Source: a virus (taxonomy: Duplodnaviria > Heunggongvirae > Uroviricota > Caudoviricetes). Taken from it: a DNA stretch of 19,305 bases. Location: the IMG/VR virus record IMGVR_UViG_3300029828_000038, positions 1-19,305 of that record, one strand, 5' to 3'. Every line of letters starts with the position of its first letter. Positions within the stretch are counted from its first letter, which is position 1. Shown piece after piece: positions 1-18,869 of this stretch. The translations under genes and the position numbers were made by a program. The notes below the pieces were generated by a model. It worked only from the letters and a program-made list of their open reading frames with translations. It was not told where the DNA came from and made no database searches.

Positions 1-827
1 CCGGAAGTCTCTACCTGTTCTGTGGTCATCGCCTGGCATCTGATATCGAAATCATGATGCGTCAGCGCTTTAATGTGCTGAACCACATTATCTGGGCGAA
101 GCCGTCCGGACGCTGGAACGGATGCAACAAGGAAAGCCTGCGGGCGTATTTTCCGGCAACAGAACGCATTCTGTTTGCTGAACATTATCAGGGTCCATAC
201 CAGCCCAAAAATGACGGCTATGCGGCAAAGGGGCGCGAGCTAAAACAGCACGTCATGGCCCCGCTGATTTCTTACTTTCGTGATGCGCGTGAATCACTGG
301 GAATAACGTCAAAACAGATAGCGGAAGCCACCGGAAAGAAAAACATGGCTTCGCACTGGTTTGGTACCAGTCAGTGGCAGTTACCAAACGAGGGTGATTA
401 CAACAAATTGCAGGCGTTGTTTGCGCGTGTTGCGGCAGAAAAACATCAGCGCGGGGAACTGGAAAAGCCACACCACCAGCTGGTCAGCACATACAGTGAA
501 CTGAACCGGCAATATGCCAGCCTGCTGGAAGAGTACAAATCCCTGCGGCGTTATTTTTCCGTATCGGCAGCCGTTCCTTATACGGATGTCTGGACGCATA
601 AACCCGTGCAGTTTTATCCGGGCAAACATCCCTGTGAAAAACCGGCGGATATGCTCCGGCAAATAATCAATGCCAGCAGTCGCCCTGGTGATTTGGTTGC
701 TGATTTTTTTATGGGGTCTGGCTCAACAATAAAAGCGGCACTTTCACTGGGACGCCGTGCGATTGGCGTGGAACTGGAGGAAGAGAGATTTAATCAGACT
801 GTAAGTGAAATAAAAAATAATCGTTAA
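1..827 (+). CDS. DNA methyltransferase, N6-adenine/N4-cytosine (PF01555-like) family; 5' end lies outside the window
   Basis: Reading frame is open from window position 3 with no stop, through the track ORF 54..827. The protein carries HPCEKP (HPTQKP-like) followed by DLVADFFMGSGST (FxGxG AdoMet motif) and GRRAIGVELEE, the characteristic C-terminal half of this family. The DPPY-type motif would be upstream of the window. Confidence 0.75.
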   Translation, partial: GSLYLFCGHRLASDIEIMMRQRFNVLNHIIWAKPSGRWNGCNKESLRAYFPATERILFAEHYQGPYQPKNDGYAAKGRELKQHVMAPLISYFRDARESLGITSKQIAEATGKKNMASHWFGTSQWQLPNEGDYNKLQALFARVAAEKHQRGELEKPHHQLVSTYSELNRQYASLLEEYKSLRRYFSVSAAVPYTDVWTHKPVQFYPGKHPCEKPADMLRQIINASSRPGDLVADFFMGSGSTIKAALSLGRRAIGVELEEERFNQTVSEIKNNR

Positions 828-1426
828 ATACGGATAACATTATTTCTGAAATTAAGAAATAATAGAAATATATACATATGTTTACGAATATTAACGTGAA
901 TTTCCATTGAAAAGAGAACAGGCATCATTAGTATTAATTTGAGTTCCGAGGGTATACCCCGAAGAACCAGTGCCGACTTAGTTCAGCAATCAGAGCAGGT
1001 GGCTTGTAACATCAGGTCACCAGTTCGATTTCTCAGTCGGTACCGTATGCGGGTCGATTCCCGCTGTTCCAGAAGTAACGAGATAGGTAGTTTTGGGCGC
1101 TGGCACATTAAATATGTGGGATGTTTCACCCTCTCTCCTTACCGCATCCAGCCTGTAATGAAAGTTATTTGTTACGGTACCAGTGCCATCTTTTTACAAT
1201 AGCGGAATGGTGCATTATTGGTAGATATTTTGTATTTCATGGCAGGGTCGGTGATGCATCATTCCGGTGTTGTAAATAACACCGCCGGGGTGTTCCTCAG
1301 TGCGGGGGTGGTTCAAGAGTCGGTTTAGCGGGAAGCCACAGTATCCATACAGTATGGAGTACTTCGGGAGGCACCCGACGCCCTGGTTTTACTACAATAA
1401 AAATAACTTATCTTCTGCATTGACCA

Positions 1427-1452
1427 GCCGCCCCCACCGGGCGGTTTTTTTA
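1427..1452 (+). terminator. Intrinsic terminator-like hairpin plus T-tract
   Basis: Stem CCGCCC (1428-1433) / GGGCGG (1439-1444) with loop CCACC, followed by T7 (1445-1451). No coding sequence overlaps it. Confidence 0.55.
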
Positions 1453-1536
1453 TTCTGAATTCCCCAAAAAAAGAAAACACGGACACTGATAATGCCCGTG
1501 TGGCAATGCCATGTAAGTCAGCGATGAATATGGCGC

Positions 1537-1570
1537 AAAAAAAAAGCGCGGCTGTCGGATTAAAGCCGCG
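1537..1570 (-). terminator. Intrinsic terminator-like hairpin plus U-tract on the minus strand
   Basis: A9 at 1537-1545 on the + strand (U9 following the hairpin on the minus strand). Stem CGCGGCT (1547-1553) / AGCCGCG (1564-1570) with a 10-nt loop. Convergent with the + strand terminator at 1427..1452. Confidence 0.4.
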
Positions 1571-1829
1571 GGACAAAGTCCGTGAAGAAGAATAAGCATC
1601 GGTCTCCTCCAGGAGACGAGTTGATATTACTAAGCTTTAAAAATGGTTTAAATCCCCGTATTAACCTTAATTTCAGATAAGCTTTATTTCATTTCTTCGC
1701 GCCACGCCCGGCGCATATCAAAAAGCCACAGAGCCTTTCAGGGGTGAGCTTACGGGATGGTCAGTGTGACTTTCTCTGTGGGCTGGTCACCCCGGGGCGC
1801 AGGCTCACCCACTAAAAGGAAAAGTCACG

Positions 1830-2255
1830 ATGTTTGGTATTTTCAAAAAGAAAACCCGCAAGGCCATTACTGAAGTAAAGAAAATGGAGAACCGCGACGC
1901 AGTGGAGGCGACCGTCTGGGGTGCGTATTCCATCGCATTCGCCGACGACACCTGTGACGCGAAAGAAGTCGCGGTACTGGAGAAAACCATTGCAGCACTT
2001 CCTGCCTTTGCGCCGTTCTCCGGTGAGATTGCACAAATGAGTGCAAATATCCGCGCCCGTTATGAAGCGTCGCCGCGCTCTGCCAATGCTGAAGCCCTTC
2101 GTCAGCTGGCTGACGTGGCAGGTACTGATGACGCAGTTAATGTGCTGTGCCTGTGTCTGGATATCGCTGACCAGGATGGCATTGGTCCGGATGAAGAAGC
2201 ACAACTCAAGAAAATTGCTCAGGCACTGCAGTTGCCGCTGGAGCAGTACCTGTGA
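1830..2255 (+). CDS. TerB-like (tellurite-resistance TerB family) protein, phage cargo gene
   Basis: ATG at 1830 preceded by AAAGGAAAAG. The 141-aa product has the TerB-type acidic motif DIADQDGIGPDEEAQLKKIAQAL and predicted helical character. It sits between terminator-like hairpins, upstream of the lysis genes. Confidence 0.7.
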   Translation: MFGIFKKKTRKAITEVKKMENRDAVEATVWGAYSIAFADDTCDAKEVAVLEKTIAALPAFAPFSGEIAQMSANIRARYEASPRSANAEALRQLADVAGTDDAVNVLCLCLDIADQDGIGPDEEAQLKKIAQALQLPLEQYL

Positions 2256-2404
2256 AAAGTGCGCGCCTTGTGCTGGCTGCCATCCTGCTGTTTCTGGTAG
2301 TGGTGGTGGATTTCACCGGACGGCTGATGTCGGTGCTGGCAGATGGTGTGCTGGTGGCGATGGCGCTGGCCGTACTCCGGCCTTTACTGCGCAAATCTGA
2401 ATAA
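2252..2404 (+). CDS. Small hydrophobic two-helix membrane peptide (50 aa), translationally coupled to the TerB-like gene; not in the ORF track
   Basis: GTG at 2252-2254 overlaps the TerB stop TGA 2253-2255 (GTGA), with GGAG at 2240-2243 upstream. Hand translation: (M/V)KSARLVLAAILLFLVVVVDFTGRLMSVLADGVLVAMALAVLRPLLRKSE, stop TAA 2402-2404. Codons are CTG/GTG-rich. It falls below the apparent 60-aa cutoff of the track. Confidence 0.4.
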   Translation: MKSARLVLAAILLFLVVVVDFTGRLMSVLADGVLVAMALAVLRPLLRKSE

Positions 2405-2455
2405 CACCACACAAAAGGCATCTGCGGGTGCCTTTGACGGGGTGTTGTTTTTTAC

Positions 2456-2477
2456 GGGCCGCTGGTGGCCCTTTTTT
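2456..2477 (+). terminator. Intrinsic terminator-like hairpin plus T-tract upstream of the lysis genes
   Basis: Stem GGGCC (2456-2460) / GGCCC (2467-2471) with loop GCTGGT, then T6 (2472-2477). A second hairpin AGGCA/TGCCT lies at 2416-2433. Confidence 0.5.
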
Positions 2478-2495
2478 ATTTACAGGAGAAAAAGT

Positions 2496-2888
2496 ATGTC
2501 TGAACCCTTATCCGGTTCCGGCACGGCTGCGGCGCTCGGCGGGGCGACGGTATTCGGGCTGTTTACCGGAACGGATTTCGGGATTGTGTTTGGTGCGTTC
2601 GCCGGGGCGTTGTTTGTGGCAACGATGCCGCAGAAGATTTCAGCCTGGCGTGTGGCGGCACATTTTCTGGTGTCGTTCATTGTTGGTGTACTGGGGGCGC
2701 GTGTACTGTCAGCCTGGATTGCATCAAAAACAGGTTATGACGGTACATCTGCGGATGCACTGTGTGCGGTGCTGGTGGCGGTGGTGTCGGTGAAGATTCT
2801 GTCGTTCATCCACCAGCAGGATATCGCATCACTGGTGTCCGGCCTGTTCTCGCGCCTGCGGGGTGGAGGAGGCGGCAATGTTAAGTAA
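2496..2888 (+). CDS. Putative holin / lysis membrane protein (three predicted TM segments)
   Basis: ATG at 2496 preceded by ACAGGAGAAAAAG; this is the in-frame internal start of track ORF 2343..2888. The 130-aa product has three hydrophobic segments and a charged Gly-rich C-terminus, and lies immediately upstream of the endolysin. Confidence 0.55.
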   Translation: MSEPLSGSGTAAALGGATVFGLFTGTDFGIVFGAFAGALFVATMPQKISAWRVAAHFLVSFIVGVLGARVLSAWIASKTGYDGTSADALCAVLVAVVSVKILSFIHQQDIASLVSGLFSRLRGGGGGNVK

Positions 2889-3153
2889 CCTTCCCGGATT
2901 GCTGAATGTGGCGTTATGCACGGTTATCGTGCTGACGCTCTTTTTTTATCGTCGCCGTGATTCCAGACATAAACCGCTGATGTCATGGCTGGCCTGGCTA
3001 CTGATGCTGCTTTATGCCTTTGCACCACTCAGCTATCTGTGCGGTCGCCCGTTAGCGGCGAACTGGCTGGCGGTGGGGCTTAATCTGCTGTTCTGCGTGC
3101 TGGTGATACGTGCACGCGGGAACGTCACAAAAATCTTTCCAATGTTGAGGTGA
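2878..3153 (+). CDS. Second lysis-cassette membrane protein (holin/antiholin-like, about three TM segments)
   Basis: ATG at 2878 preceded by GGAGGAGG, overlapping the upstream gene by 11 nt. The 91-aa product is hydrophobic with basic loops (FFYRRRDSRHK). Its stop TGA 3151-3153 is 2 nt before the endolysin start. Confidence 0.5.
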   Translation: MLSNLPGLLNVALCTVIVLTLFFYRRRDSRHKPLMSWLAWLLMLLYAFAPLSYLCGRPLAANWLAVGLNLLFCVLVIRARGNVTKIFPMLR

Positions 3154-3155
3154 AT

Positions 3156-3533
3156 ATGTCGGGTAAATTCAGATTCAGCCGTCGCAGTGAAAAAAATCTG
3201 GAGGGCGTCAAACCACAGCTGGTTGCTGTCGTTCGCCGTGCGCTGGAGCTGACGGAGGTTGATTTCGGTATTACGGAAGGCCTGCGCAGTAAGTATCGCC
3301 AGAAACAGCTGGTTGCGGCAGGGAAAAGCCAGACCATGAACAGCCGCCACCTGACAGGTGATGCGGTGGATGTTGTGGCCTACATTGGCAGCCAGGTGTC
3401 ATGGGACTGGCCTCTGTACGAGAAAATAGCGCAGGCATTTAAGCAGGCTGCCGCAGAGCTGGGAACTACCATCGAATGGGGCGGTGAGTGGCGGTCCTTA
3501 AAGGACGGGCCTCACTTTCAGTTGAAACGCTGA
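3156..3533 (+). CDS. Endolysin, L-alanyl-D-glutamate peptidase (peptidase M15 / VanY-like, phage T5 Lys-like)
   Basis: ATG at 3156 with GAGGTG upstream. The 125-aa product has the T5-Lys-like pattern: KFRFS..SEKNL..VKPQL..RRALEL, the zinc-ligand motif SRHLTGDAVD, and C-terminal EWGGEW...DGPHFQL. Confidence 0.85.
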   Translation: MSGKFRFSRRSEKNLEGVKPQLVAVVRRALELTEVDFGITEGLRSKYRQKQLVAAGKSQTMNSRHLTGDAVDVVAYIGSQVSWDWPLYEKIAQAFKQAAAELGTTIEWGGEWRSLKDGPHFQLKR

Positions 3534-3547
3534 TAACCAGGTGTGTT

Positions 3548-3730
3548 ATGAGCAGAAAACACTGGACACACAGAATGCCGCGAACGGCGGCGAAATGGGC
3601 ACTGGTAGCGATACTGGTGCCTTTTTTATTGGTGGGATGCGTCAGCCTGGATAAGGCGCGCCAGCTTTTCGATACGGCTTCTCAGGTCTGCGAAATTGTT
3701 GACGGTGTTCGGCAGTGTCTGCAGAACTGA
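3548..3730 (+). CDS. Small outer-membrane lipoprotein, lysis-associated (spanin-like position)
   Basis: ATG at 3548 with AGGTG upstream. Signal peptide with basic n-region, hydrophobic core and lipobox LVGC. The mature part is 30 aa (CVSLDKARQLFDTASQVCEIVDGVRQCLQN), with Val at +2 and three Cys. It starts 14 nt after the endolysin stop. Confidence 0.6.
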   Translation: MSRKHWTHRMPRTAAKWALVAILVPFLLVGCVSLDKARQLFDTASQVCEIVDGVRQCLQN

Positions 3731-3901
3731 TCGCCCGTAAGAGCAGAATATTTTGCTGAAAAATGAAGGATGCGTCAGCGCCCGGAAAGCATGAAATTCT
3801 GTGTTTGCGGTCATTCAATAAAATAAATTCTTTCTTTCGCCGCGAATACTCAAATGTTGATCAGCGCCAGGTGCGGCGACGGGCTTCGATATCAGGAGAC
3901 G

Positions 3902-4180
3902 ATGATGGGAAAAACAGAAAACAAACCGATTTTAGTTGGTGTCGCGTCTATTCCGTTTAAGTTTGAACTGTCACAACTGGTGGAAGTATGCATCAGTGAT
4001 GAATGGGGTGAGGTTAAAGCTCGCGCTCAGTATGCAGATGGCGAAAACCAGTACTTGCTCCACTACAAAGCTGCTGATGGTCGTGCCACGACGGAGTGGT
4101 TTGGTGAATCAATGCTGGAAGCAACAGAAGATGCTCGTCATCCGGGCTGTCCGGTATTTGCCTTCATGAAATTACCGTAA
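3902..4180 (+). CDS. Hypothetical protein (92 aa, soluble), candidate cargo gene
   Basis: ATG at 3902 preceded by TCAGGAGACG. No TM segment or recognisable motif. It is preceded by a 170-bp AT-rich spacer and followed by the palindrome GTTACTGAGTAAC (4190-4202) and the hairpin GCAGCCC/GGGCTGC (4213-4235). Confidence 0.5.
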   Translation: MMGKTENKPILVGVASIPFKFELSQLVEVCISDEWGEVKARAQYADGENQYLLHYKAADGRATTEWFGESMLEATEDARHPGCPVFAFMKLP

Positions 4181-4262
4181 GGTGCGGTAGTTACTGAGTA
4201 ACAGGCATTACAGCAGCCCTTCAGTGAGGGGCTGCGATAATGCCGGTATTAAGGAGATTCCA

Positions 4263-4613
4263 ATGCCATCACGAATCCCCCGCGCATGCCGTAAGCGAGG
4301 TTGCGCAGGCACGACAACAGACAGCTCTGGCTACTGCGATAAACATCGGGGTGAAGGCTGGGTGCAGCACCAGCGCGGACTGAGCCGCCACCAGCGTGGC
4401 TATGGCTCAAAATGGACGGTGATTCGAGCCCGTATTCTGAAGCGCGATAAAGGTCTGTGTCAGTTGTGTCTGCGTGTCGGTGTGGTGCGCGAGGCGAAAA
4501 CTGTCGACCACATCATCCCGAAAGCACATGGCGGAACAGATGCAGACAGCAACCTGCAGAGTCTGTGCTGGCCCTGCCACAAAGCGAAAACAGCGCGCGA
4601 ACGAATCAGGTGA
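4263..4613 (+). CDS. HNH endonuclease (packaging-associated, HK97 gp74-like position)
   Basis: ATG at 4263 with AAGGAG upstream. The product has Cys-rich zinc-finger-like CRKRGCAG...CDKH and the HNH core DHIIPKAHGG...N...CWPCHKAKT. It lies directly upstream of the terminase small subunit. Confidence 0.85.
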   Translation: MPSRIPRACRKRGCAGTTTDSSGYCDKHRGEGWVQHQRGLSRHQRGYGSKWTVIRARILKRDKGLCQLCLRVGVVREAKTVDHIIPKAHGGTDADSNLQSLCWPCHKAKTARERIR

Positions 4614-4760
4614 TAATTATTCTCACTTGTGGGGAGGGGCGGGTAAAATCCCTGCAGCCCTGGCTGCTCAGTACCGCCGCCTGACCTTTCCTCGCATCGC
4701 CGCAGGTTCGAAAACTTTTTTTTGGGAATGCGATCAAACGATTGATAGGTAAAACCGATT
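4614..4760. other. Candidate cos / packaging-initiation region between HNH endonuclease and terminase small subunit
   Basis: A 147-bp non-coding gap with G-rich GGGGAGGGGCGGG, the hairpin GCAGC-CCTG-GCTGC, the GC block CCGCCGCCTGACC and a T9 run. The position matches the cos site of HK97-like phages. The exact cut site cannot be determined. Confidence 0.3.
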
Positions 4761-5243
4761 ATGTCAGGACCCCCGAAAACCCCGCCACGCCTGCATTTGA
4801 TACGAGGCAACCCATCAAAGCGCCCCGTTAAAGACCCCAAAAAAACCGCTAAAAAGGACGAAAAAGGTCTCCCTAAAATTCCGCAACATTTAGGGGCGCA
4901 GGGGAAGTACTGGTTCAGGCGAATGGCGGAAGAACTGAATGCGGAAGGGATCATTTCTCAGCTTGATGCGCGTGCACTCGAGTTGCTGGTGGAAGCCTAC
5001 ACCGAATACCGGCATCACTGCGAAATACTCGATGTTGAGGGTTATACCTACCGCACGGAAACGCAGAACGGTGATGTGCTGATTAAGGCACACCCGGCTG
5101 CTGCGATGAAAGCGGATGCCTGGAAGCGGATCCGGGCGATGCTTGCAGAGTTTGGTATGTCACCGGCAAGCCGGGCGAAAGTAAATACCGCCGGACCGGA
5201 TGATGTTGATCCGCTGGCGGAACTTTTAAAAGCGAGAGACTGA
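4761..5243 (+). CDS. Terminase small subunit, P27 family
   Basis: 160-aa product with a basic N-terminus (PKTPPRLHLIRGNPSKRP...) and the P27-family core YWFRRMAEEL...LDARALELLVEAY...HPAAAMKADAWKRIRAMLAEFGMSPASRAK. Its stop overlaps the large-subunit start (TGATG). Confidence 0.85.
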   Translation: MSGPPKTPPRLHLIRGNPSKRPVKDPKKTAKKDEKGLPKIPQHLGAQGKYWFRRMAEELNAEGIISQLDARALELLVEAYTEYRHHCEILDVEGYTYRTETQNGDVLIKAHPAAAMKADAWKRIRAMLAEFGMSPASRAKVNTAGPDDVDPLAELLKARD

Positions 5244-7000
5244 TGGCAAAAGTGGCTGACGGGATCCGCTACGCCGAACGTGTTGTTGCAGGAGAAATTG
5301 TCGCTGGCGAATTTGTCCGTCTGGCCTGCCAGCGTTTTCTTGATGATCTGAAGTACGGCGAAGAGCGGGGGATTTATTTCAGTGAACCCCGTGCGCAGCA
5401 CATCCTGAATTTCTACAAATTTGTGCCCCATGTAAAAGGGGCGCTGGCAGGCCAGCCCATTGAACTGATGGACTGGCATGTATTTATTCTCATTAATATT
5501 TTTGGTTTTGTCATTCCGCTGGTCAATGAAGAGACCAGGGAAGTTGTTATGCGCAGCGATGGCAGCGGACGTCCGGTGATGGTGCGCCGGTTCCGGACGG
5601 CGTACAACGAAGTCGCCCGTAAAAACGCAAAATCAACCCTGTCATCGGGTATCGGTCTGTATATGACGGGGGCAGATGGTGAAGGCGGGGCTGAGGTGTA
5701 TTCAGCCGCAACCACGCGTGACCAGGCCAGAATCGTGTTTGAAGACGCCAAAAATATGGTCAGAAAAGCCCGGTCGACACTCGGGCGATTGTTTGATTTC
5801 AACAAGCTGGCGATTTACCAGGAGCAGAGCGCATCAAAATTTGAACCGCTTTCTTCGGATGCAAACAACCTGGATGGTCTGAACATCCACTGCGCCATTA
5901 TTGATGAGCTGCATGCACATAAAACCCGCGACGTGTGGGACGTTCTGGAAACGGCAACTGGTGCCCGTCTGCAGTCCCTGTTATTTGGTATCACCACGGC
6001 TGGCTTTAACAAGGAAGGGATTTGTTACGAGCAACGCGATTACGCCATCAAGGTATTGCGTGGCTATAACAGTGACGTGGAGGGCGCGGTAAAAGACGAC
6101 TCTTACTTTGCGATCATTTACACGCTCGATGAGGGAGATGATCCGTTTGATGAAACGGTCTGGCAGAAAGCGAATCCCGGCCTGGGCATCTGTAAACGCT
6201 GGGATGATTTGCGTCGTCTGGCGAAAAAAGCGAAGGAGCAGGTTTCTGCGCGGGTGAATTTTTTCACGAAACACATGAATGTGTGGGTCACTGCCGAATC
6301 TGCCTGGATGGACATGATTAAGTGGGAGAAGTGCGAATACATTGCTCCACAGCATGAGCTGAAAACATATCCCATGTGGGTCGGTGTAGACCTTGCTCAT
6401 AAGATTGATATCTGTGCGGCGGCAAAACTCTGGCGAACCGATAACGGACATGTTCATGCTGATTTTAAATTCTGGCTCCCGGAAGGACGGCTGGAGCGGT
6501 GCTCGCGGCAGCAGGCAGAACTTTACCGGAAATGGGCGGAGATGGATAAGCTCATCCTGACGGATGGTGATGTTATCGATCATGCTCAGATAAAAAGTGA
6601 CTTACTGGAATGGATTGGTGGTGAAAACCTGAGGGAGCTGGGATTTGACCCGTGGAGTGCAATGCAGTTCAGTCTGGCTCTGGCTGAAGAAGGGATACCG
6701 CTGGTGGAAGTTCCGCAGACGGTCCGCAATCTGTCAGAGGCTATGAAGGAAACGGAATCACTGGTCTATGCCGGGCGTTTTCACCACAGCAATCACCCGG
6801 TCATGAACTGGATGATGTCTAACGTTACGGTAAAACCGGACAAAAACGACAATATCTTCCCGAACAAATCCACGCCTGAAGCCAAAATCGACGGTCCTGT
6901 TGCGATGTTTACAGCAATGAGCCGGATGCTGGTCAATGGCGGTGAACCGGAGCCGGATCTGTCTGAGCATCTGGTCAGCGTTGGTATTCGCTCGCTTTAA
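5243..7000 (+). CDS. Terminase large subunit (Terminase_1-like)
   Basis: 585 aa, size and position typical. ATPase-like N-terminal region and nuclease-like C-terminal region by pattern. Coupled to the small subunit. Confidence 0.9.
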
Positions 7001-7011
7001 CCGAGGGCATT

Positions 7012-7194
7012 ATGTTTCTGATAATTCTCACGCCACTGGTGGGCGTGCTGGGGGCGCTTTTGCTGGCGTATGGCGCCTGGCTGATTTATCCCCCGGCAGG
7101 TTTTGTTGTTGCCGGGGCGCTGTGTCTGTGCTGGTCGTGGCTGGTTGCGCGTTATCTCGATCGCGGTCACCGGGTCGCCTCTGGAGGTGAGTAA
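7012..7194 (+). CDS. Small two-helix membrane protein (60 aa) between terminase and portal
   Basis: ATG at 7012, 11 nt after the terL stop, with GAGGG upstream. Product [60 protein letters not shown] has two hydrophobic helices and a charged tail. Its stop TAA overlaps the portal ATG (TAATG). Confidence 0.5.
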
Positions 7195-8435
7195 TGTTTT
7201 TCCAGGGGCTTTTTCAACGCAAAAATAACACCCCCGTCACAACGCCCGGGATGCTTGCGGAAGAGCTGGGGTTGTCATACGACACCTATACCGGAAAGCG
7301 GATCAGCAGCCAGCGGGCCATGCGGCTGACGGCGGTCTATTCCTGCGTCAGGGTGCTGGCTGAGTCTGTTGGTATGCTGCCCTGCAGTCTCTACAAAATC
7401 AGCGGCACCCTTAAAACACGGGCGGTGGATGAACGGCTGCATAAGCTGATTTCGGCAAAACCCAATGGCTACATGACGCCGCAGGAATTCTGGGAACTGG
7501 TTATCGTCTGCCTGTGTCTGCGGGGTAATTTTTACGCCTACAAGGTAAAGGCACTGGGGGAAGTGGTGGAGCTTCTTCCGATAGATCCGGGCTGTGTGGA
7601 ACCGAAGCTGAACAGCCAGTGGCAGCCGGTTTATCAGGTGACGTTTCCGGATGGTTCCGTGGATGTGCTGACCCAGAATGAAATCTGGCATGTGCGTACC
7701 CTGACGCTGGATGGACTTGTCGGTCTGAATCCCATTGCATATGCGCGCGAGGCCATTTCACTGGCAGCGGCAACCGAGGAGCATGGTGCCAGATTGTTTG
7801 GCAATGGCGCGGTAACATCCGGTGTGTTGCGTACGGATCAACAACTTTCTGACCAGGCTTATGCGCGTATCAAAAAGGATTTTGAGGAACGGCATGTCGG
7901 GCTGGGAAACTCTCATCGTCCGATGATTCTGGAAATGGGGCTGGACTGGAAAACGGTGGCACTGAATGCCGAGGACAGCCAGTTCCTGGAAACCCGCAAG
8001 TTTCAGCTGGAAGAAATCTGTCGCCTGTTCCGCGTGCCGCTGCATATGGTGCAGAACACCGATCGCGCCACCTTCAACAATATTGAAGAGCTGGGGCTTG
8101 GTTTCATTAACTATTCCCTTGTGCCGTATCTGACCCGTATTGAGCAGCGGATCAATACAGGGCTGGTCAGGGAGAGCAAGCAGGGAAAATTTTACGCCAA
8201 GTTTAATGCCGGAGCATTGTTGCGTGGCGACATGAAATCCCGCTTTGAAGCGTATGCCACGGGGATCAACTGGGGGATTTATTCCCCTAATGACTGCCGT
8301 GATCTGGAAGATATGAATCCCCGACCGGGCGGTGATGTGTATCTGACACCGATGAACATGACCACCAGTCCCTCTGCTGGCGATGACAACGGTAAGAAAA
8401 AGGAGAGTGGAGATGCAGACAAAACAGCGTCTTGA
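7194..8435 (+). CDS. Portal protein, HK97 family
   Basis: 413 aa, immediately downstream of terminase and upstream of the prohead protease. Sequence pattern typical of Phage_portal family. Confidence 0.9.
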   Translation: MFFQGLFQRKNNTPVTTPGMLAEELGLSYDTYTGKRISSQRAMRLTAVYSCVRVLAESVGMLPCSLYKISGTLKTRAVDERLHKLISAKPNGYMTPQEFWELVIVCLCLRGNFYAYKVKALGEVVELLPIDPGCVEPKLNSQWQPVYQVTFPDGSVDVLTQNEIWHVRTLTLDGLVGLNPIAYAREAISLAAATEEHGARLFGNGAVTSGVLRTDQQLSDQAYARIKKDFEERHVGLGNSHRPMILEMGLDWKTVALNAEDSQFLETRKFQLEEICRLFRVPLHMVQNTDRATFNNIEELGLGFINYSLVPYLTRIEQRINTGLVRESKQGKFYAKFNAGALLRGDMKSRFEAYATGINWGIYSPNDCRDLEDMNPRPGGDVYLTPMNMTTSPSAGDDNGKKKESGDADKTAS

Positions 8436-9063
8436 TATACCGCTGAACCTGAAATCCGTCAGTGATTCCGGGGAATTTGAAGGTTACGGTTCTGTTTTTG
8501 GTGTTAAGGACAGCCACGATGATGTGGTGGTCCCCGGAGCCTTTACCACAACACTCCAGAAATGGAGCGAAAAAAAGGCGCTGCCTGCGTTGCTCTGGCA
8601 GCACCGCATGGATGAGCCCATCGGTGTGTACACCGAAATGAAAGAAGATGATGTCGGGCTTTATGTCAGGGGACGATTACTCATTGATGATGATCCCCTG
8701 GCAAAACGTGCACATGCCCATATGAAGGCCGGTTCTTTAACCGGCCTTTCTATTGGCTACATCCTGAAAGACTGGGAGTACGACCGGGAAAAAGGGGTAT
8801 TCCTGCTGAAAGAGATCGACCTGTGGGAGGTCAGTCTGGTGACGTTTCCTTCCAATGATGAAGCACGCATCAGCGATGTGAAAAATGCGCTGGCGCGTGG
8901 GGAGATCCCTGATCAGAAAATTATTGAGCGGGTCCTGCGCGATGTTGGACTCTCGCGAACCCAGGCCAAAGCATTCATGGCCGGGGGATATGGCGCTTTA
9001 TCCCTGCGTGATGCTGAGGATGTGGATGCCGCACTGAATGCACTGAAAAATCTTAAATTTTAA
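8413..9063 (+). CDS. Prohead protease, HK97 family (peptidase S78/U35)
   Basis: ATG at 8413 with AAGGAGAGTGGAG upstream. Chosen over the track start 8383, which has no RBS. Conserved region GYGSVFGVKDSHDDVVVPGAF and position between portal and capsid. Confidence 0.85.
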   Translation: MQTKQRLDIPLNLKSVSDSGEFEGYGSVFGVKDSHDDVVVPGAFTTTLQKWSEKKALPALLWQHRMDEPIGVYTEMKEDDVGLYVRGRLLIDDDPLAKRAHAHMKAGSLTGLSIGYILKDWEYDREKGVFLLKEIDLWEVSLVTFPSNDEARISDVKNALARGEIPDQKIIERVLRDVGLSRTQAKAFMAGGYGALSLRDAEDVDAALNALKNLKF

Positions 9064-9076
9064 TCAGGAGTAAATA

Positions 9077-10303
9077 ATGGCTGTTGATATTAAAGACGTT
9101 GAACAGGTCGCGCAGGATTTGCAGCAGAAGTTTGACGATTTTAAGGCAAAAAACGACAAGCGCATTGACGCGATCGAACAGGAAAAAGGCAAGCTGGCCG
9201 AACAGGTGGAAAGCCTGAACGGGCAAATCAGCGAGCTGGAGAACCTGAAAAGCGACCTGGAAAAAGAGCTGGCAGACATCAAGCGTCCGGCAGGCGGCAC
9301 GCAAAATAAAGTTGCCGGTGAACACAAAGAAGCGTTTATCGGATTTATGCGCAAGGGGCGTGAAGACGGTCTGCGTGAACTTGAACGTAAGGCGCTTCAG
9401 GTAGGTAATGATGAAGATGGTGGTTATGCCATTCCGGAAGAACTGGATCGTACCATCCTGACGCTACTGAAAGATGAGGTGGTGATGCGCCAGGAAGCCA
9501 CTGTGATCACCCTCGGTGGCTCGGATTATAAAAAACTGGTGAATCTGGGCGGCACAACGTCCGGATGGGTGGGGGAAACGGATGCTCGTCCGGAAACCGC
9601 CACCTCAAAACTGGGTCTGATTGAACCCTTTATGGGGGAAATCTACGGCAACCCGCAGGCCACCCAGAAAATGCTCGATGATGCTTTCTTCAATGTGGAA
9701 GACTGGATCAACAGTGAGCTGGCGCTGGAATTTGCCGAGCAGGAAGAAATTGCCTTTACCAGTGGCGACGGCAGCAAAAAACCAAAAGGTTTTCTGGCTT
9801 ACGAGTCCACCGATGAAGATGACAAGACCCGTGCGTTTGGCAAACTTCAGCACATTGCTTCCGGTGCGGCTTCCGGCGTGACTGCCGATGCGATCATTAA
9901 ACTGATTTACACCCTGCGCAAGGCGCACCGCAGCGGCGCGAAGTTTATGATGAACAACAGCAGCCTGTTTGCCATTCGTCTGCTGAAGGATAACGACGGA
10001 AATTATCTGTGGCGTCCGGGTATTGAGCTGGGTCAGCCTTCTTCTCTGGCAGGGTATGGCATCGTTGAGAATGAACAGATGCCGGATATTGCTGCCGATG
10101 CAAAAGCCATTGCGTTTGGTAACTTCAAACGTGGCTATACCATCGTTGATCGCATCGGTACCCGTATCCTGCGCGATCCGTACACCAATAAACCGTTTGT
10201 GGGTTTTTACACCACCAAGCGAACCGGCGGTATGCTGGTGGATTCTCAGGCGATTAAGCTGATGAAAATTGGGGCCGCAACCCGCCAGAAAGCCGCTGCG
10301 TAA
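9077..10303 (+). CDS. Major capsid protein, HK97 family, with N-terminal coiled-coil delta (scaffold) domain
   Basis: ATG at 9077 with AGGAG upstream. 408 aa. The N-terminal ~100 aa is a coiled-coil (KFDDFKAKNDKRIDAIEQEKGKLAEQVESLNGQISELENLKSDLEKELADIK), followed by a capsid-fold region. Confidence 0.9.
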   Translation: MAVDIKDVEQVAQDLQQKFDDFKAKNDKRIDAIEQEKGKLAEQVESLNGQISELENLKSDLEKELADIKRPAGGTQNKVAGEHKEAFIGFMRKGREDGLRELERKALQVGNDEDGGYAIPEELDRTILTLLKDEVVMRQEATVITLGGSDYKKLVNLGGTTSGWVGETDARPETATSKLGLIEPFMGEIYGNPQATQKMLDDAFFNVEDWINSELALEFAEQEEIAFTSGDGSKKPKGFLAYESTDEDDKTRAFGKLQHIASGAASGVTADAIIKLIYTLRKAHRSGAKFMMNNSSLFAIRLLKDNDGNYLWRPGIELGQPSSLAGYGIVENEQMPDIAADAKAIAFGNFKRGYTIVDRIGTRILRDPYTNKPFVGFYTTKRTGGMLVDSQAIKLMKIGAATRQKAAA

Positions 10304-10336
10304 TGCGGTTTTTTATGCCCGCACAGTGTTGCGGGC
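10293..10336 (+). terminator. Structured intercistronic element after the major capsid gene (weak terminator-like hairpin plus a second strong hairpin)
   Basis: CCGC (10293-10296) / GCGG (10305-10308) followed by T6 (10309-10314), then the perfect hairpin GCCCGCA (10317-10323) / TGCGGGC (10330-10336) directly before the RBS of the next gene. Confidence 0.3.
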
Positions 10337-10347
10337 AGGAGTTTCTG

Positions 10348-10665
10348 ATGGCAGCAATAGTGGAAAAACTCAGGGCGCAGTGCCGTATTGATACAGATGA
10401 TGCAACTGATGATGAGTTACTGATGCTGTATTTCCGGGCTGCCTGCCGCAAGGCAGAAAATTTTATCAACCGTAAGCTTTATGAGGAGACGGTGCCGGAA
10501 GGTGATCCTGACGGGGTGCTTATAGCTGATGATGTTTTGCTGGCGCTCATGTTGCTGGTCGGACACTGGTACGAAAACCGGGAAAATTCCTCAGATGTCA
10601 GCAAGGCACCAGTTCCGTTTGGTTTTTCTTCTCTGCTGGAGCCTTATCGTTTTATTCCTTTGTAG
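10348..10665 (+). CDS. Head-tail adaptor / connector protein (gp6-like, Phage_connect_1)
   Basis: ATG at 10348 with GGGCAGGAG upstream. Chosen over the track start 10303, which would read through the hairpins. Motif MAAIVEKLRAQCRIDTDDATDDELL typical of this family. Confidence 0.8.
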   Translation: MAAIVEKLRAQCRIDTDDATDDELLMLYFRAACRKAENFINRKLYEETVPEGDPDGVLIADDVLLALMLLVGHWYENRENSSDVSKAPVPFGFSSLLEPYRFIPL

Positions 10666-10673
10666 GAGGAACC

Positions 10674-11012
10674 ATGCAGGCGGGCAGATTACGTGATCGC
10701 GTAACTATTCTGAATGTCACCACCGTCCGTTCTCCGTCAGGGCATCCGGTGGAGACAATGACGGAGGGGGCAACCGTATGGGCAGAAGTTAAGGGGATCA
10801 GCGGGAGGGAGAGAATATCAGGAGGTGCAGAAACCGCTCAGGCTACGGTCAGAGTCTGGATGCGATTTCGGCGCGATGTGACAGCGACTTCACGTCTGAA
10901 AGTGCTGACCGGTGCATTTAAAGGGGTCACTCTTGGTATAGAAGGGCCACCAATACCGGATGCACGCGCCACCCGGCTTGAAATGCTCTGCAGTCTGAAG
11001 GGGAATGTGTGA
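10674..11012 (+). CDS. Head closure protein (Phage_H_T_join, SPP1 gp16-like)
   Basis: ATG at 10674 with GGAGGA upstream. 112 aa with pattern RDRVTI...VWAEVKGISGRE. Position after the adaptor. Confidence 0.8.
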   Translation: MQAGRLRDRVTILNVTTVRSPSGHPVETMTEGATVWAEVKGISGRERISGGAETAQATVRVWMRFRRDVTATSRLKVLTGAFKGVTLGIEGPPIPDARATRLEMLCSLKGNV

Positions 11013-11458
11013 TGGATTTCAGTCTTGATTTTTCAGGTCTGGCGGATATTGCACGGGATCTGGAGACGCTCAGCAGGGCAGAAAACAATAAGGTTCTGCG
11101 CGATGCCACCCGTGCCGGTGCTGAAGTTATGCGGGATGCAGTTGTTGAACGTGCGCCGGAGCGAACCGGGAAACTGAAGAAAAATGTGGTTGTTCTCACG
11201 CAGCGTTCAAAGCGTCGGGGGGAAATTATCTCGGGTGTCCACATTCGCGGACGGAACCTGCGAACCGGAAACAGTGATAACAGCATGAAAGCCAGCGATC
11301 CCCGAAATGCGTTTTACTGGCGCTTTGTGGAGCTGGGAACGATAAACATGCCCGCGCATCCGTTCATTCGCCCGGCTTTCGATACGACAGAGGAACTGGC
11401 AGCACAGATTGCCATACAGCGAATGAATCAGGCTATTGATGAGGTCTTAAGTAAATGA
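11012..11458 (+). CDS. HK97 gp10-family protein (neck / tail-completion)
   Basis: ATG at 11012 overlapping the upstream stop (TGATG); the track begins 3 nt earlier at GTG 11009. Motif VVERAPERTGKLKKN and ...HPFIRPAF typical of the family. Confidence 0.8.
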   Translation: MDFSLDFSGLADIARDLETLSRAENNKVLRDATRAGAEVMRDAVVERAPERTGKLKKNVVVLTQRSKRRGEIISGVHIRGRNLRTGNSDNSMKASDPRNAFYWRFVELGTINMPAHPFIRPAFDTTEELAAQIAIQRMNQAIDEVLSK

Positions 11459-11799
11459 GGGAAGCCACACTGTATTCCCTGCTGTCTCAACTGGCCGGAG
11501 GACAGGTTTATCCTTATGTGGTCCCGCTGACGGAGGGAAAGCCTGCGGTATCTCCGCCGTGGCTGGTGTTTTCTGTGGTGTCTGACACGGCGTCTGATGT
11601 GCTTGATGGTCAGGCTGAATCCAGAATTACCGTGCAGATCGATGTCTGGGCAACAGTACCTGATGACGCAGATGATATCCGTGAGCAGGCGCTTGATGCG
11701 GTAAGGCAACTTGCACCCTCCGTTATTTCTAAAACTCAGGGTTATGATCCTGATTCCCGTCTGAGCAGAGCCACGCTTGAATTTCAGGTAATAGCCTGA
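11455..11799 (+). CDS. Tail terminator-like protein (DUF3168-like, lambda gpU position)
   Basis: ATG at 11455 overlapping the upstream stop (ATGA). 114 aa. Position directly upstream of the major tail protein. Confidence 0.7.
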   Translation: MREATLYSLLSQLAGGQVYPYVVPLTEGKPAVSPPWLVFSVVSDTASDVLDGQAESRITVQIDVWATVPDDADDIREQALDAVRQLAPSVISKTQGYDPDSRLSRATLEFQVIA

Positions 11800-11820
11800 G
11801 GTCGTTAATGATTTTACCCA

Positions 11821-11846
11821 CCCGCCGCTGGCGGGTTTTTTATTTT
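11821..11846 (+). terminator. Terminator-like hairpin plus T-tract between tail terminator and major tail genes
   Basis: Stem CCCGCC / GGCGGG with loop GCT (11821-11835), followed by TTTTTTATTTT. Immediately upstream of the RBS CAGGAGACG of the major tail gene. Confidence 0.45.
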
Positions 11847-11858
11847 CAGGAGACGAGT

Positions 11859-12563
11859 ATGTCCTCTAATTTTGAGCGTTCGCAACTGACGAAAATTATG
11901 ATTTCGTCTGCACCGGTAACAGCAGAAACCCTGGATTCTGCCAGCTATCTTGGCCTGAGCTGTACAATCAAAGAGGTGCAGTTTACCGCAGGACAAAAGC
12001 AGGATATTGATGTCACCACGCTGTGTTCTGTTGAGCAGGAAAATATTAACGGCCTTGGTGCCGCGTCAGAGATTTCCATGTCAGGCAACTTTTACCTCAA
12101 TGCTGCCCAGAACGCGTTGCGCAGTGCCTATGACAATGACACCACGTATGGCTTTAAAGTTATTTTTCCGTCAGGCAACGGATTTACCTTTATGGCAGAG
12201 GTGCGTCAGCATACCTGGTCTGCAGGAACTAATGGTGTTGTGGCTGCAACGTTTTCCCTGCGCCTGAAAGGTAAACCTGTGCTGACGACAGAGCCGCTGA
12301 AAGTGAAGGTCGATTTAAACAGCACGCTGCAGGTTTCTGCCGGAGCGAAACTCGAAATGGTGGTTGAGGCTGCCGGTGGTGTGCCGCCTTATTCTTATGT
12401 CTGGAAGAAAGGTAGTTCTCCTGTTTCCGGACAGACGGCGGCAACATTCAGTAAGGCATCAGCAGCATCAGGTGATGCCGGTGCGTATACCTGCGAGATT
12501 TCTGATTCAGCAAGCCCTGTTAACAAGGTGACCTCCACTTCCTGCACTGTTACCGTCAGTTAA
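11859..12563 (+). CDS. Major tail (tube) protein with C-terminal Ig-like (Big_2-type) domain
   Basis: ATG at 11859 with AGGAGACGAG upstream; the track start 11808 would read through the hairpin. The C-terminal ~90 aa has the Ig-like signature (...PPYSYVWKKG...AGAYTCEISDSAS...TVTVS). Confidence 0.85.
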   Translation: MSSNFERSQLTKIMISSAPVTAETLDSASYLGLSCTIKEVQFTAGQKQDIDVTTLCSVEQENINGLGAASEISMSGNFYLNAAQNALRSAYDNDTTYGFKVIFPSGNGFTFMAEVRQHTWSAGTNGVVAATFSLRLKGKPVLTTEPLKVKVDLNSTLQVSAGAKLEMVVEAAGGVPPYSYVWKKGSSPVSGQTAATFSKASAASGDAGAYTCEISDSASPVNKVTSTSCTVTVS

Positions 12564-12577
12564 TGAGGATAGATGTG

Positions 12578-12949
12578 ATGACTAAAAATATCCGCAATCT
12601 GGCACTGGCAACGATGTCGGGGTTTCGCCATAAAACTGTTGATGTGCCTGAATGGGAAGGGGCAACGGTTGTATTACGGGAACCTTCTGCAGAAGCCTGG
12701 TTGCGCTGGCAGGAGATCGTTAAAGCAAAAGATGATGAGACACCGTTATCCGTTGCGGAGCGCGCCCGCCGAAATCTGGAGGCAGATGTTGAACTGTTCA
12801 TTGATGTTCTGTGTGATACCGGACTGCAACCTGTATTTTCAGAGGATGATCGTGAACAGGTGATTGCCGTGTATGGCCCGGTGCATGCGCGGCTTCTTCG
12901 GCAGTCTCTGGAACTGATCAGTGATGCCGGCGAGGTTAAAAAAAAGTAG
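12578..12949 (+). CDS. Tail assembly chaperone (lambda gpG equivalent)
   Basis: ATG at 12578 with GAGGATAGATGTG upstream; the alternative start is ATG 12563, coupled as TAATG. The ORF ends ...GEVKKK then TAG 12947-12949, immediately after the slippery heptamer. Confidence 0.75.
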   Translation: MTKNIRNLALATMSGFRHKTVDVPEWEGATVVLREPSAEAWLRWQEIVKAKDDETPLSVAERARRNLEADVELFIDVLCDTGLQPVFSEDDREQVIAVYGPVHARLLRQSLELISDAGEVKKK

Positions 12950-13251
12950 AGCTTCCGGGGATGCGTTTTCTGATGATGCTGGCGCTCAGGATGGGGCGCA
13001 CATTGTCAGAGTTACGCCGGGAAATGTCCGCATCAGAAATCATGATGTGGGCAGAATTTGACAGGTACAGCCCGCTGGGTGACGAGCGGGCTGATATCCG
13101 GGCTGCCCAGATAGTTTCTGCGGTTTACGGTGCGCAGGGTGTCAAAGTCCCACTGAATGATGCGCTTCTTCAGTGGGAACAAGAGCAGACAGAAGGCGTC
13201 TCAGATCCATTTGCCGGACTGGAAAACGCGCTTTTAATAGTGTCTCAGTGA
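12578..13251 (+). CDS. Tail assembly chaperone frameshift fusion product (lambda gpGT equivalent), made by a -1 shift at 12940-12946
   Basis: Frame relationship verified by hand: G is in frame 2 and the downstream ORF (track 12961..13251) is in frame 1. The fusion would read ...GEVKKK-VELPGMRFLMML... to the stop at 13249-13251. Position between major tail and tape measure matches the conserved G/GT arrangement. Confidence 0.6.
12940..12946 (+). other. Slippery heptamer A AAA AAG for -1 programmed ribosomal frameshift (G to GT)
   Basis: In the G frame the codons are AAA (12941) AAG (12944) TAG (12947). The -1 frame has a stop at 12937-12939 and is open from 12940 (AAA AAA GTA GAG CTT CCG GGG ATG...) into the downstream ORF ending 13251. 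Confidence 0.65.
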
Positions 13252-13260
13252 GTCAACATA

Positions 13261-13280
13261 ACCGCTTCGGCGGTTTTTTT
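13261..13280 (+). terminator. Terminator-like hairpin (UUCG tetraloop) plus T-tract upstream of the tape measure gene
   Basis: ACCGC-TTCG-GCGGT (13261-13274) followed by T7, then the RBS GGAGA and ATG 13291. Confidence 0.45.
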
Positions 13281-13290
13281 CGTCCGGAGA

Positions 13291-16200
13291 ATGAGTGTGG
13301 CGACATTACGTGAACTGATTATTAAAATCTCGGCAAATTCCCGGTCATTCCAGTCAGAGATCTCCCGGGCTTCGCGTATGGGGCAGGATTACTACCGTAC
13401 CATGCAGAACGGAGGCCGGCAGTCCGCTGCTGCATCCCGTGAAATGCGGCGTGCACTGGCAGAAGTGACGGATCAGATAAATACAGCTAAATCTTCGGCA
13501 CTGAATATGGCGGGGGCATTTGCCGGAGCTTTTGCTACCGGTCATCTTATTTCTCTCGCCGATGAGTGGAATTCAGTAAATGCCCGTCTGAAGCAGGCTT
13601 CACAGTCCAGTGATGATTTTCAGGTATCACAACGTGAATTAATGGCAATCAGCCAGAGAACGGGAACGGCGTTTTCTGATAACGCCAGCCTTTTTGCCCG
13701 CTCTGCAGCTTCCATGCGGGAGTATGGCTACAGTTCTGAGGAGGTACTGAAAGTCACCGAGGCGATCTCCACGGGCCTGAAATTATCCGGTGCCAGTACA
13801 GCAGAAGCCAGTTCGGTGATCACGCAGTTCAGTCAGGCACTGGCGCAGGGAGTGCTGCGCGGTGAAGAATTTAACTCTGTGAATGAGAACGGCGATCGTG
13901 TTATTCGTGCGCTGGCTGCGGGAATGGGTGTTGCCCGTAAGGATCTGAAGGCCATGGCGGATAACGGAAAACTGACCGCCGATAAGGTTGTTCCTGCACT
14001 GATTAGTCAGCTTGGGGCGTTGCGTGATGAATATGCAGCAATGCCTGATACTGTTTCATCCTCTGCAACCAAAGTTGAAAACGCCTTTATGGCCTGGGTT
14101 GGTGGTGCGAACGAGGCAAGCGGAGTGACAAAGACACTCACCGGGGTGTTGAATGGTGTTGCAGACAATATTGATACCGTGGCTGCTGCAGCTGGCGCAC
14201 TGGTTGCCGTCGGGGTAGCCCGATATTTTGGCAATATGGCGTCGTCTGCTGGATCTGCAACTGCCGGATTAATTACTGCAGCCAGAAACGAAGTGGCTCT
14301 TGCTGAAGCGCAACTTCGGGGGACACAGATAGCAACCGCCAGGGCGCGTGCGGCGGTTTATCGTGCGCAACAGGCGGTTGTTGCTGCTCGCGGTACCGAA
14401 AGGCAGGCCGCAGCAGAAGCGAAGCTGACAGCTGCCCAGGCGTCACTTACCCGTAATATTGCGGCCAGAACAGCGGCACAGACAACGCTGAATACTGTCA
14501 CGTCAGTGGGGAGTCGTCTGTTAAGTGGTGCGCTGGGGTTGGTTGGTGGTGTGCCGGGACTCGTCATGCTGGGGGCGACGGCCTGGTACACGATGTATCA
14601 GAATCAGGAGCAGGCCAGAGAATCTGCACGCCAGTATGCCGCAACAATCGACGAAATTCGCCAGAAAACGTCGGCAATGTCGCTTCCTGAAGCGTCAGAT
14701 AATGAGGAAAAGACGCGGCAGGCACTTGATGAGCAAAACAGGTTAATTGACGAGCAGAAAAGTAAGATTAAATCCTTACAGGAAAAAATTGCTGGCTATC
14801 AGTATGTGCTGGCAAACCCGGGCTGGACAACCGATAACGGTTTTATGATTAACCACATGACGTCGGTAAAAACTGTCACAGAAGGGCTTGCAGAAGCAAC
14901 AAATCAACTGGCAGTTGAACAGTCCCGTCTCACACAAATGCAGGGCAAAGCGCAATCCATTCAGGATGTGCTTGCCGGGCTGGAGGAGCGACGGGTGGCG
15001 TTGATCCGTCAACAGGCCGCGGAACAAAACAAAGCGTATCAGTCCCTGTTGATCATGAATGGGCAGCATACCGAGTTTAATCGCCTTCTCGGGCTCGGTA
15101 ATGAATTACTTCAGCAGCGACAGGGGCTGGTGAATGTACCGTTACGGCTACCACAGGCAACCCTGGATGATAAACAGCAGACCGCACTGAATAACAGCGA
15201 GCGCGAACTGGCTCTGTCCCGCCTGAAGGGGGAAGCCCGTGAGCGTGCCCGCCTGGGTTATGCTGCGGATGATCTCGGCTTTGTGGGAGAGGCGTATCAG
15301 ACAGCCAGACAGAATTATATCAATAACTCACTGGATGCCTGGCGAAATAACCAGGCAAATAAACCCAAAGCGCATAAAAAGACCGAAGCGGAAAAAACAG
15401 AAGATATTTATAAACGGCTGATTAAACAGCAAAAAGAACAAATAGCACTGGCAGGGCAGAATACTGAACTGGCTAAGATGAAATATCAGGTCAGTCAGGG
15501 CGAATTATCAACCCTGTCAGAAGCGCAGAAAAAAACGCTTTTGCAGAATGCAGCACTCATCGACCAGAAAAAGATTCGTGAGCAGCTTGCTGCGTATGAG
15601 AGCAGTCTGGCGGACAGTAATGCCAGTGCCCGGGCATCTGACGACGCGCAGTTGCTGGGATATGGTGAAGGCTCACGGATGCGTGAACGACTCCAGGAAA
15701 TGTGGAGTATCCGGCAGACGTTTGAGCAGAAAAATAACGAACTGCTGAGACAGTATCAGGCCGGAGAAATTGAAGAAGCCCTGTGGAAACAGGAGAAAGA
15801 ACTGAATAAAAAATATCTGGAAGAGCGTCTCAGCGATCAGCAGGATTATTATGCAAAGGCCGATGCTTTACGTAATAACTGGAATGCCGGACTCCAGGAA
15901 GGACTGACCAACTGGGCAGACAGTGCCACCGATTATGCTTCACAGGCGGCAGATGCTGTCGTTTCCACGATGGACGGGCTGGTATCAAATATTTCCGATG
16001 CACTGGCCGGGAATGTTGTGGAGTGGAGGAACTGGGGGAGTTCAGTTCTCCGGGAAGTTTCAAAAATTCTGATGAATGCAGCCATTGTTAACGGACTGAA
16101 ATCACTCTCCGGTGCCGGAGGGTGGCTTGGTACGGTCGGCGGATGGATTTCGGGGGCGGTGGCAAACGCAAAAGGTGGTGTTTACACATCGGCAAATCTG

Positions 16201-17556: not shown

Positions 17557-17560
17557 TCCC

Positions 17561-18849: not shown

Positions 18850-18869
18850 TGAAAAACGTTTTATGTGAA

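Follow-up and report, generated by a model that had tools for sequence, protein, structure and literature searches.

This locus raises the question of what a TerB-like gene carried beside the lysis genes of a prophage does, and at which stage of phage growth it is expressed. An earlier note, made from the sequence alone, had read the gene as a phage moron, that is, a solitary TerB bracketed by terminator-like hairpins and inserted between the late regulatory region and the lysis genes. The window, a stretch of 19,305 nucleotides (positions 1 to 19,305 of IMG/VR virus record IMGVR_UViG_3300029828_000038), corresponds by gene content and families to the late region from a lambdoid prophage of the E. 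coli type. The gene order is the 3′ part of a DNA methylase gene, a non-coding stretch, the gene pair tciAB, two holin genes and an M15 endolysin gene, and the terminase, head, and tail genes. The tciAB module is of the already annotated P1 TciA/TciB type. The unexpected element is the leader RNA that precedes it, and this leader is the element worth following up.

Setting of the tciAB Genes in the Late Region

The features that frame the tciAB segment are as follows.

54-827: DNA methylase gene, 3′ part (89% nucleotide identity to phiP27 L24)
1259-1455, plus strand: weak STnc100-like sRNA region, part of the phage backbone and outside the cassette (Rfam, 21.7 bits; terminator scan)
2496-3533, plus strand: lysis cassette of two holins and an M15 endolysin (Pfam, PHROG)
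2496-2888 and 2878-3153, both plus strand: the holin genes (Phage_holin_8 and Phage_holin_3_7 among the Pfam matches)
3150-3533, plus strand: M15 endolysin gene (Pfam Peptidase_M15_4; PHROG endolysin)

The holin-endolysin genes were 87-90% identical at the nucleotide level to phiP27 L28-L30, and in the related phage PPyecE_EH1910, a Q antiterminator gene lies just 5′ of the same methylase gene. Because of this synteny with PPyecE_EH1910 and phiP27, we take the tciAB segment to lie within a Q-dependent late transcription unit, the Q gene itself being located outside the window.

Inspection of the stretch between the methylase gene and tciAB revealed several remnants and non-coding elements. In related prophages (loci L005-L007), the tRNA-Thr/tRNA-Gly region is 81-83% identical in nucleotide sequence to positions 957-1054, and ARAGORN detected no tRNA gene in the window; segment 957-1054 is probably a decayed tRNA gene, and the overlapping open reading frame at 939-1202, which is without a family match, is probably spurious. 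Region 1259-1455 matched the full Rfam model for STnc100 at 21.7 bits (E 0.007), which is below the gathering score of 47. This region has the CGGGAGGCACCCG hairpin in common with STnc100, ends at the terminator-like hairpin at 1426-1446, and is kept in the empty-site locus L005. Clear copies of STnc100, scoring up to 139 bits, adjoin tciAB in related loci (e.g. L209:3780-3992). According to a 2026 preprint, the genes that are conserved around the prophage sRNAs PasA and PasC include TerB, and STnc100 and PasD are located close by within those late regions. Two hairpins lie in the non-coding positions 1450-1640, one being terminator-like and on the minus strand (1501-1477) and the other formed by GTCTCC/GGAGAC at around 1602-1617. 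A minus-strand open reading frame at 1599-1450 (49 amino acids, with a GGAGG ribosome-binding site) was rejected as a gene because its start and frame are unconserved in relatives. An E. coli-type late region with 93% nucleotide identity was also present in PP818812.1 (L001), named “Actinobacillus phage vB_Apl-pPE4,” which is unexpected for a phage of Pasteurellaceae.

TciA Is a TerB-fold Protein Encoded with a Small Membrane Protein

The two genes of the module are as follows.

1830-2255, plus strand: tciA, TerB-fold protein of 141 amino acids (Pfam, PHROG, profile comparison with 2JXU)
2252-2404, plus strand: tciB, DUF3927 small membrane protein of 50 amino acids with two hydrophobic helices (Pfam, PHROG)

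TciA scored 26.6 bits with the Pfam TerB family (PF05099), just above the cut-off of 24.4 and with only residues 11-57 aligned, and most of the listed homologues carry a precomputed match to the same family. A full-length match to PHROG 632, annotated “tellurite resistance,” was obtained at 4e-63. The solved TerB was absent from single-sequence and shallow-profile searches of solved structures, and was recovered only after the type-2 allele described below had joined the profile; with the resulting profile of 58 homologues of both allelic types, residues 13-137 aligned with residues 19-144 of Klebsiella pneumoniae TerB (2JXU; E 6.6e-14). TciA has a TerB-like all-helical fold. The TerB likeness asserted in the earlier note is therefore sustained by Pfam, PHROG 632, and the 2JXU profile, the profile search on which that claim was staked having returned TerB homology. 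Neither TciA nor TciB matched any model in PADLOC-DB 2.0 at E values up to 1, and searches of NCBIfam returned no matches. The PADLOC models presumably include the TerB components of Shango and Bunzi.

The dN/dS ratio of tciA is 0.05-0.07, and the gene is under strong purifying selection. Two acidic “ADG...E” motifs are conserved in TciA. At residue 40, within the first of these, the window encodes Asp (positions 1947-1949; AFADDTCD), and Gly is present in >90% of homologues. Because several other loci share the Asp, this residue can be regarded as a lineage variant and not as damage. The N terminus of the protein, MFGIFKKKTRK, is conserved and hydrophobic-basic in character, and the first nine residues were modelled at low confidence.

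The product of the second gene matched Pfam DUF3927 (4.7e-14) and PHROG 1470, “TciB-like.” The GTG start codon of tciB overlaps the TGA stop codon of tciA as GTGA (a one-base overlap), an arrangement found in 117 of 118 unique intact loci, and because of this overlap, the two proteins are probably made together. The description of the TerB gene as solitary did not survive this result; the reading frame at 2252-2404 lies inside the interval that the earlier note had covered but was missed there. TciB contains two hydrophobic helices around a conserved VDFT-R-MS-LADG motif, and both of its ends are basic, which suggests an inner-membrane hairpin with both termini in the cytoplasm. Gene coupling and co-occurrence are the only grounds on which a putative TciA-TciB interaction is proposed. 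A natural TciA-TciB fusion (P0051), modelled from the single sequence with AlphaFold2 as a stand-in for the complex, was dropped from the analysis because the model was of poor quality (pLDDT 63.6).

The base of the terminator-like hairpins includes the tciB stop codon, and the space from there to the first holin gene accommodates no open reading frame, so tciC is absent at this locus. The tciAB genes are dispensable, because tciA is disrupted or truncated in 25 of the leader-bearing loci examined, some of these being simply cut by contig ends.

Boundaries of the Cassette and Its Flanking Hairpins

Comparison with prophages that lack the insert defined the following features.

1721-2400, plus strand: exchangeable cassette comprising the 3′ part of the leader, tciA, and tciB (empty sites L005 and L007)
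1426-1446, plus strand: stem of the upstream terminator-like hairpin, followed by a T-run (terminator scan)
2400-2477, plus strand: tandem terminator-like hairpins just 5′ of the holin ribosome-binding site (fold, terminator scan)

In L005 (E. coli OZ040973), the sequence corresponding to window positions 1191-1720 is joined to that of 2401-2484 through about 7 nucleotides, and L007 (strain 503025) shares the holins, its homology to the window picking up again at 2400. The right edge of the insert is thus the tciB stop codon, and the left edge lies ∼275 nucleotides from the upstream hairpin. Region 1721-2400 is a discrete, horizontally exchanged cassette.

A scan of positions 800-4300 yielded 13 terminator-like sites, compared with 4.5 ± 2.3 in shuffled sequences. 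Downstream of tciB, a compound hairpin with a U-run (2400-2449) is followed by a second hairpin, GGGCC-N6-GGCCC with T6 (2456-2471). The predicted folding energy of 2400-2500 is −36.4 kcal/mol (z = −3.36), and compensatory variants of the inner stem of the downstream structure occur in different loci. The hairpins on both sides have the appearance of genuine intrinsic terminators. The downstream hairpins are present in loci without an intact tciAB (L005, L007, and phiP27), and because both sets stay in the empty sites, the hairpins belong to the phage backbone.

These comparisons bear directly on the proposed moron architecture. Terminator-like hairpins do flank the gene pair on both sides, as the scan and the z-score of the downstream fold indicate, and the cargo does form a discrete insert with sharp indel edges between the Q-proximal region and the lysis genes. 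The alignment with insert-lacking prophages, which had been suggested as a check, therefore located the expected indel edges but placed them at 1721 and 2400 and not at the hairpins.

Bracketing as a general idea does survive: of the 87 distinct upstream flanks from related loci, 77 contain a hairpin and T-run whose end lies about 10-12 nucleotides 5′ of the unit. The present window belongs to the minority without such a hairpin directly 5′ of the unit. Deletion scars from which tciAB had been removed were also observed (L167:3012-3107, L162:7998-8093, and L098). Here a 10-nucleotide microhomology, TCATT(C/T)CTGA, joins the leader's 5′ portion to the first downstream hairpin, of which the 3′ half is retained.

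The Cassette Occupies the stx2e Position of phiP27

Phage phiP27 contains the same methylase and lysis genes, and the interval between them holds tRNA genes and stx2eAB. A remnant of tciB, interrupted by a stop codon and a frameshift, is located in phiP27 (L002, 2943-3093) directly 3′ of stx2eB and a terminator, and is followed by the same hairpins that follow tciB here. On this comparison of sequences, tciAB and stx2e are alternative occupants of one slot. The phiP27 lineage once carried tciAB, and the decayed tciB remnant after stx2eAB implies that its tciA and the 5′ portion of its tciB were displaced by stx2e. That one slot can receive either tciAB or stx2e bears on the origin of toxin phages.

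Of 5426 complete E. coli genomes, 391 contain some portion of the cassette, and 165 contain at least 80% of its length. A type-2 TerB-like allele (143 amino acids, ∼42% identical) occurs behind a near-identical leader and near-identical N-terminal codons in L004, L016, L108, and other loci. This allele sits in Stx-like prophages, and in PPyecE_EH1910 it is located 5′ of the nanS esterase gene.

A Conserved Structured Leader Precedes tciA

The leader, which was missed in the earlier note, has the following elements, all on the plus strand.

1697-1829: conserved structured leader of tciA (conservation, covariance model, complementary helix versions)
1699-1703/1710-1714: hairpin P0
1705-1709/1795-1799: P1, formed by the P0 loop and the downstream segment
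1726-1733/1774-1781: helix S1
1744-1750/1802-1808: helix S2
1816-1820: Shine-Dalgarno sequence, AAGGA

The leader ends a few bases before the ribosome-binding site. It is 85-98% identical to the leaders of relatives whose tciA silent sites differ by 47-79%, and it is nearly unchanged 5′ of the type-2 allele. When a covariance model derived from the leaders of E. coli was used for searching, Erwinia jumbo phages gave full-length matches (48-62 bits, E around 1e-10 to 1e-14) directly 5′ of terB, at a site where the leader directly follows tRNA-Cys; no structured leader was detected with this model in P1 or phiP27. In Erwinia phage Caitlin (L219, 1086-1312), tRNA-Cys is followed by the leader without any intervening base or terminator, an arrangement that hints that a processed 5′ end of the leader may matter. 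Paralogous leaders were found in the same prophages 5′ of unrelated cargo, namely Ant-like, antirepressor-like, and KilA-N genes and several unknown open reading frames, and in most cases they lie just after a terminator hairpin. Such paralogues are located at L001:4927-5066, L209:8796-8938, L062:4600-4740, L010:5483-5596, L110:5885-5775 (minus strand), and L162:12369-12482. A shorter variant of the motif, of ∼110 nucleotides, also exists.

All copies share a common order of elements: P0, P1, S1, an invariant YCUUUCRG, S2, CUAAAAGGAAA, and AUG. S2 consists of GUGAGCY paired with GGCUCAC, and CUAAAAGGAAA contains the Shine-Dalgarno sequence. In a table of 14 representative sequences, curated by hand, the numbers of distinct complementary versions were 8 for P0, 8 for P1, 9 for S1, and 5 for S2, the last count leaving out three Erwinia S2 helices that are bulged. 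All versions are fully complementary except for two S2 variants, which have one mismatch each. Examples for S1 are CCACAGAG/CUCUGUGG, CCGUAGAG/CUCUACGG, and CGAGAG/CUCUCG, and examples for P1 are CGCCC/GGGCG, UCUCAC/GUGAGA, and UCGUAC/GUACGA. S2 crosses S1, and the P0 loop pairs ∼90 nucleotides downstream; the predicted fold of four helices with two pseudoknots is supported by the many compensatory changes in this hand-curated table. The G-U pairs assign the structure to the plus strand.

Among close relatives alone, covariation was modest, with 2 compensatory pairs. A minimum-free-energy fold of the single leader sequence was dropped because it was not significant (z = −1.71), as was an RNAalifold consensus of close relatives, to which covariation contributed almost nothing. 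The competing helix P4 (GGGGUGA/UCACCCC) shows only G-C versus G-U variation among close relatives. P4 and S2 both need the GUGA segment. S2 looked unsupported among the close relatives but has its 5 complementary versions in the wider family, and P4 and S2 may be alternative states. No covariation was found between CCUUU of the leader and AAAGG of the ribosome-binding site, a pairing considered as a possible anti-Shine-Dalgarno interaction.

Neither the leader nor its paralogues matched Rfam 15 at the gathering score, and within 1697-1829, a search at E values up to 10 returned only one chance match of 19.7 bits. A limited literature search found no description of the leader. Members of the leader class, which lie after a terminator or a tRNA gene, occur in both lambdoid prophages and virulent Erwinia jumbo phages. 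It is conceivable, although we would put it at somewhat under an even chance, that the leader (125-135 nucleotides) represents an undescribed class of cis-acting structured RNA, which would serve as a riboswitch-like translational gate or as a ribozyme-like processing element for passenger genes in long antiterminated transcripts. If functional, it would constitute a portable control element for phage passenger genes.

Expression and Possible Functions of tciAB

Scans for the sigma-70 consensus on the plus strand of 1450-1830 revealed no promoter at a threshold of 9 of 12 positions. The best relaxed matches, with 8 of 12, fall within 1621-1688, 5′ of the conserved leader, and a non-canonical promoter could lie inside the leader itself. 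In P1, tciABC is located downstream of the C1-operator-controlled ban promoters, and no other promoter is annotated for it. The P1 genes have been reported to be transcribed during lytic infection by P1vir and to be non-essential by CRISPRi. Among virulent phages, pairs of a TerB-like and a DUF3927 gene were also present beside replication genes in the N4-like podophages FSL SP-076 and Pollock, beside tRNA genes in Erwinia jumbo phages (Caitlin and relatives), and in the Pseudomonas Nickievirus phiK7B1. Genes for tRNAs likewise lie near the pair in P1, phiK7B1, and lambdoid loci. Because a gene for lysogenic conversion is of no use to a phage that never lysogenises, a shared function of tciAB during lytic growth, and not in lysogeny, is more likely.

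The following model accommodates these observations and, taken whole, is judged the probable explanation, with an appreciable margin for error. The tciAB genes, having no promoter of their own, would be transcribed by Q-antiterminated late transcription, as is stx2. TciB would hold TciA at the inner membrane, an anchoring beside which the hydrophobic-basic N terminus of TciA may be noted. The cassette product would then act in lytic growth, probably as a sensor of, or buffer against, membrane or ion stress such as that caused by superinfecting phage, colicins, or membrane-directed host defences, and the leader would probably gate translation or mark an RNA processing site. TerB has been reported to be membrane-associated, and in the Bunzi, Shango, and Dionysus defence systems, it has been proposed as the module responsible for membrane surveillance.

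The main rivals of this membrane or ion-stress model are an exclusion function and an anti-defence decoy. According to the former, tciAB would be a lysogenic-conversion moron, expressed in the lysogen and conferring resistance to tellurite, to pore-forming colicins, or to phage by superinfection exclusion. The TerB homology itself speaks for such a role, given that ter operons have been linked in the literature to tellurite, colicin, and phage resistance and that TerB domains occur in validated anti-phage systems; so do the terminators that flank the unit, its frequency in prophages (the 391 E. coli genomes noted above), and the possibility that the conserved leader hides a non-canonical promoter. 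Set against this are the lack of a sigma-70 promoter in the 1450-1830 scan, the occurrence of the pair in obligately lytic N4-like and jumbo phages, and the position of the P1 copy behind the ban promoters. Moreover, TerC, TerD, TerE, TerZ, and TerA are all absent from the neighbours (methylase, DUF3927 protein, holins, and endolysin), and no PADLOC model was matched. The lysogen-expressed form of the moron put forward in the earlier note is therefore unlikely, on the grounds of the promoter scan, the virulent-phage pairs, and the P1 ban context.

The decoy explanation is less likely again. Here TciA would mimic or titrate host TerB sensors, such as those of ter, Shango, Bunzi, and Dionysus, and so keep membrane-surveillance immunity untriggered. 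That many virulent phages, jumbo phages included, carry a TerB-like protein would fit such a role, as would the report that the TerB-containing Dionysus system targets jumbo phages and the strong purifying selection on the sequence; nevertheless, TciA has no detectable similarity to PADLOC models, and the obligatory membrane partner TciB is left unexplained. The position of the pair directly 5′ of two holin genes, its place next to the holins here and in most type-1 loci, and the small size and two hydrophobic helices of the membrane protein TciB could also indicate an antiholin-like regulator that is accessory to lysis timing. This seems very improbable, as the pair is without a lysis link in other phages, where it lies in the P1 ban region, among N4-like replication genes, or beside jumbo phage tRNA genes, and as the empty-site phages have the same holins without tciAB.

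To our knowledge, no biochemical role for TerB has emerged in the time since ter operons were first described, P1 tciAB is annotated only “by homology,” and reports of a phenotype are lacking for every TciA and TciB. A minimal unit consisting of a TerB-like protein and a 50-amino acid membrane partner is conserved and strongly selected in at least five unrelated phage groups, both temperate and virulent, and tciAB is a small, tractable system for TerB action at the membrane.

Comparison with Known Systems

The closest counterpart of the module is tciA-tciB-tciC of P1, named by homology in the P1 genome annotation, in which TciA is 83.7% identical at the amino acid level and a DUF3927 TciB is encoded directly next to it. 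The P1 genes have been described in a variable region of P1-like phage-plasmids. Whereas P1 has tciC, the ban region, and no structured leader, the present locus has no tciC, occupies a lambdoid late slot between terminators, and carries the leader. The relation to the terZABCDE operon is remote. The likeness to K. pneumoniae TerB (2JXU) consists of full-length profile homology, an all-helical fold, and the two “ADG...E” motifs, but the partner here is a 50-amino acid DUF3927 protein.

Expression of Stx2 depends on late transcription. The stx2e slot of phiP27 has the same position as the cassette, between the DNA methylase/tRNA region and the holin-endolysin genes, but its cargo is a toxin with no structured leader detected, in contrast to the TerB-like pair with a leader found here. 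Classical morons, such as lambda bor and lom and HK97 gp15, resemble the cassette in being discrete inserts with hairpins on both sides. They differ from it in that no promoter of its own was detected here and in that the terminators stay in the empty sites, and the presence of homologues in virulent phages speaks against a role confined to the lysogen. Shango, Bunzi, and Dionysus likewise combine a TerB domain with membrane proteins, whereas the present unit has no helicase, ATPase, or pore-forming partner and is phage-encoded, virulent phages included.

A pseudoknotted translational riboswitch, the yybP-ykoY Mn2+ riboswitch, is found upstream of TerC-family genes. The tciA leader resembles pseudoknotted riboswitches and leaders of this kind in being a compact multi-helix RNA that ends just before the ribosome-binding site. 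It differs from the known riboswitches in having no sequence or structure match in Rfam and in preceding unrelated cargo genes.
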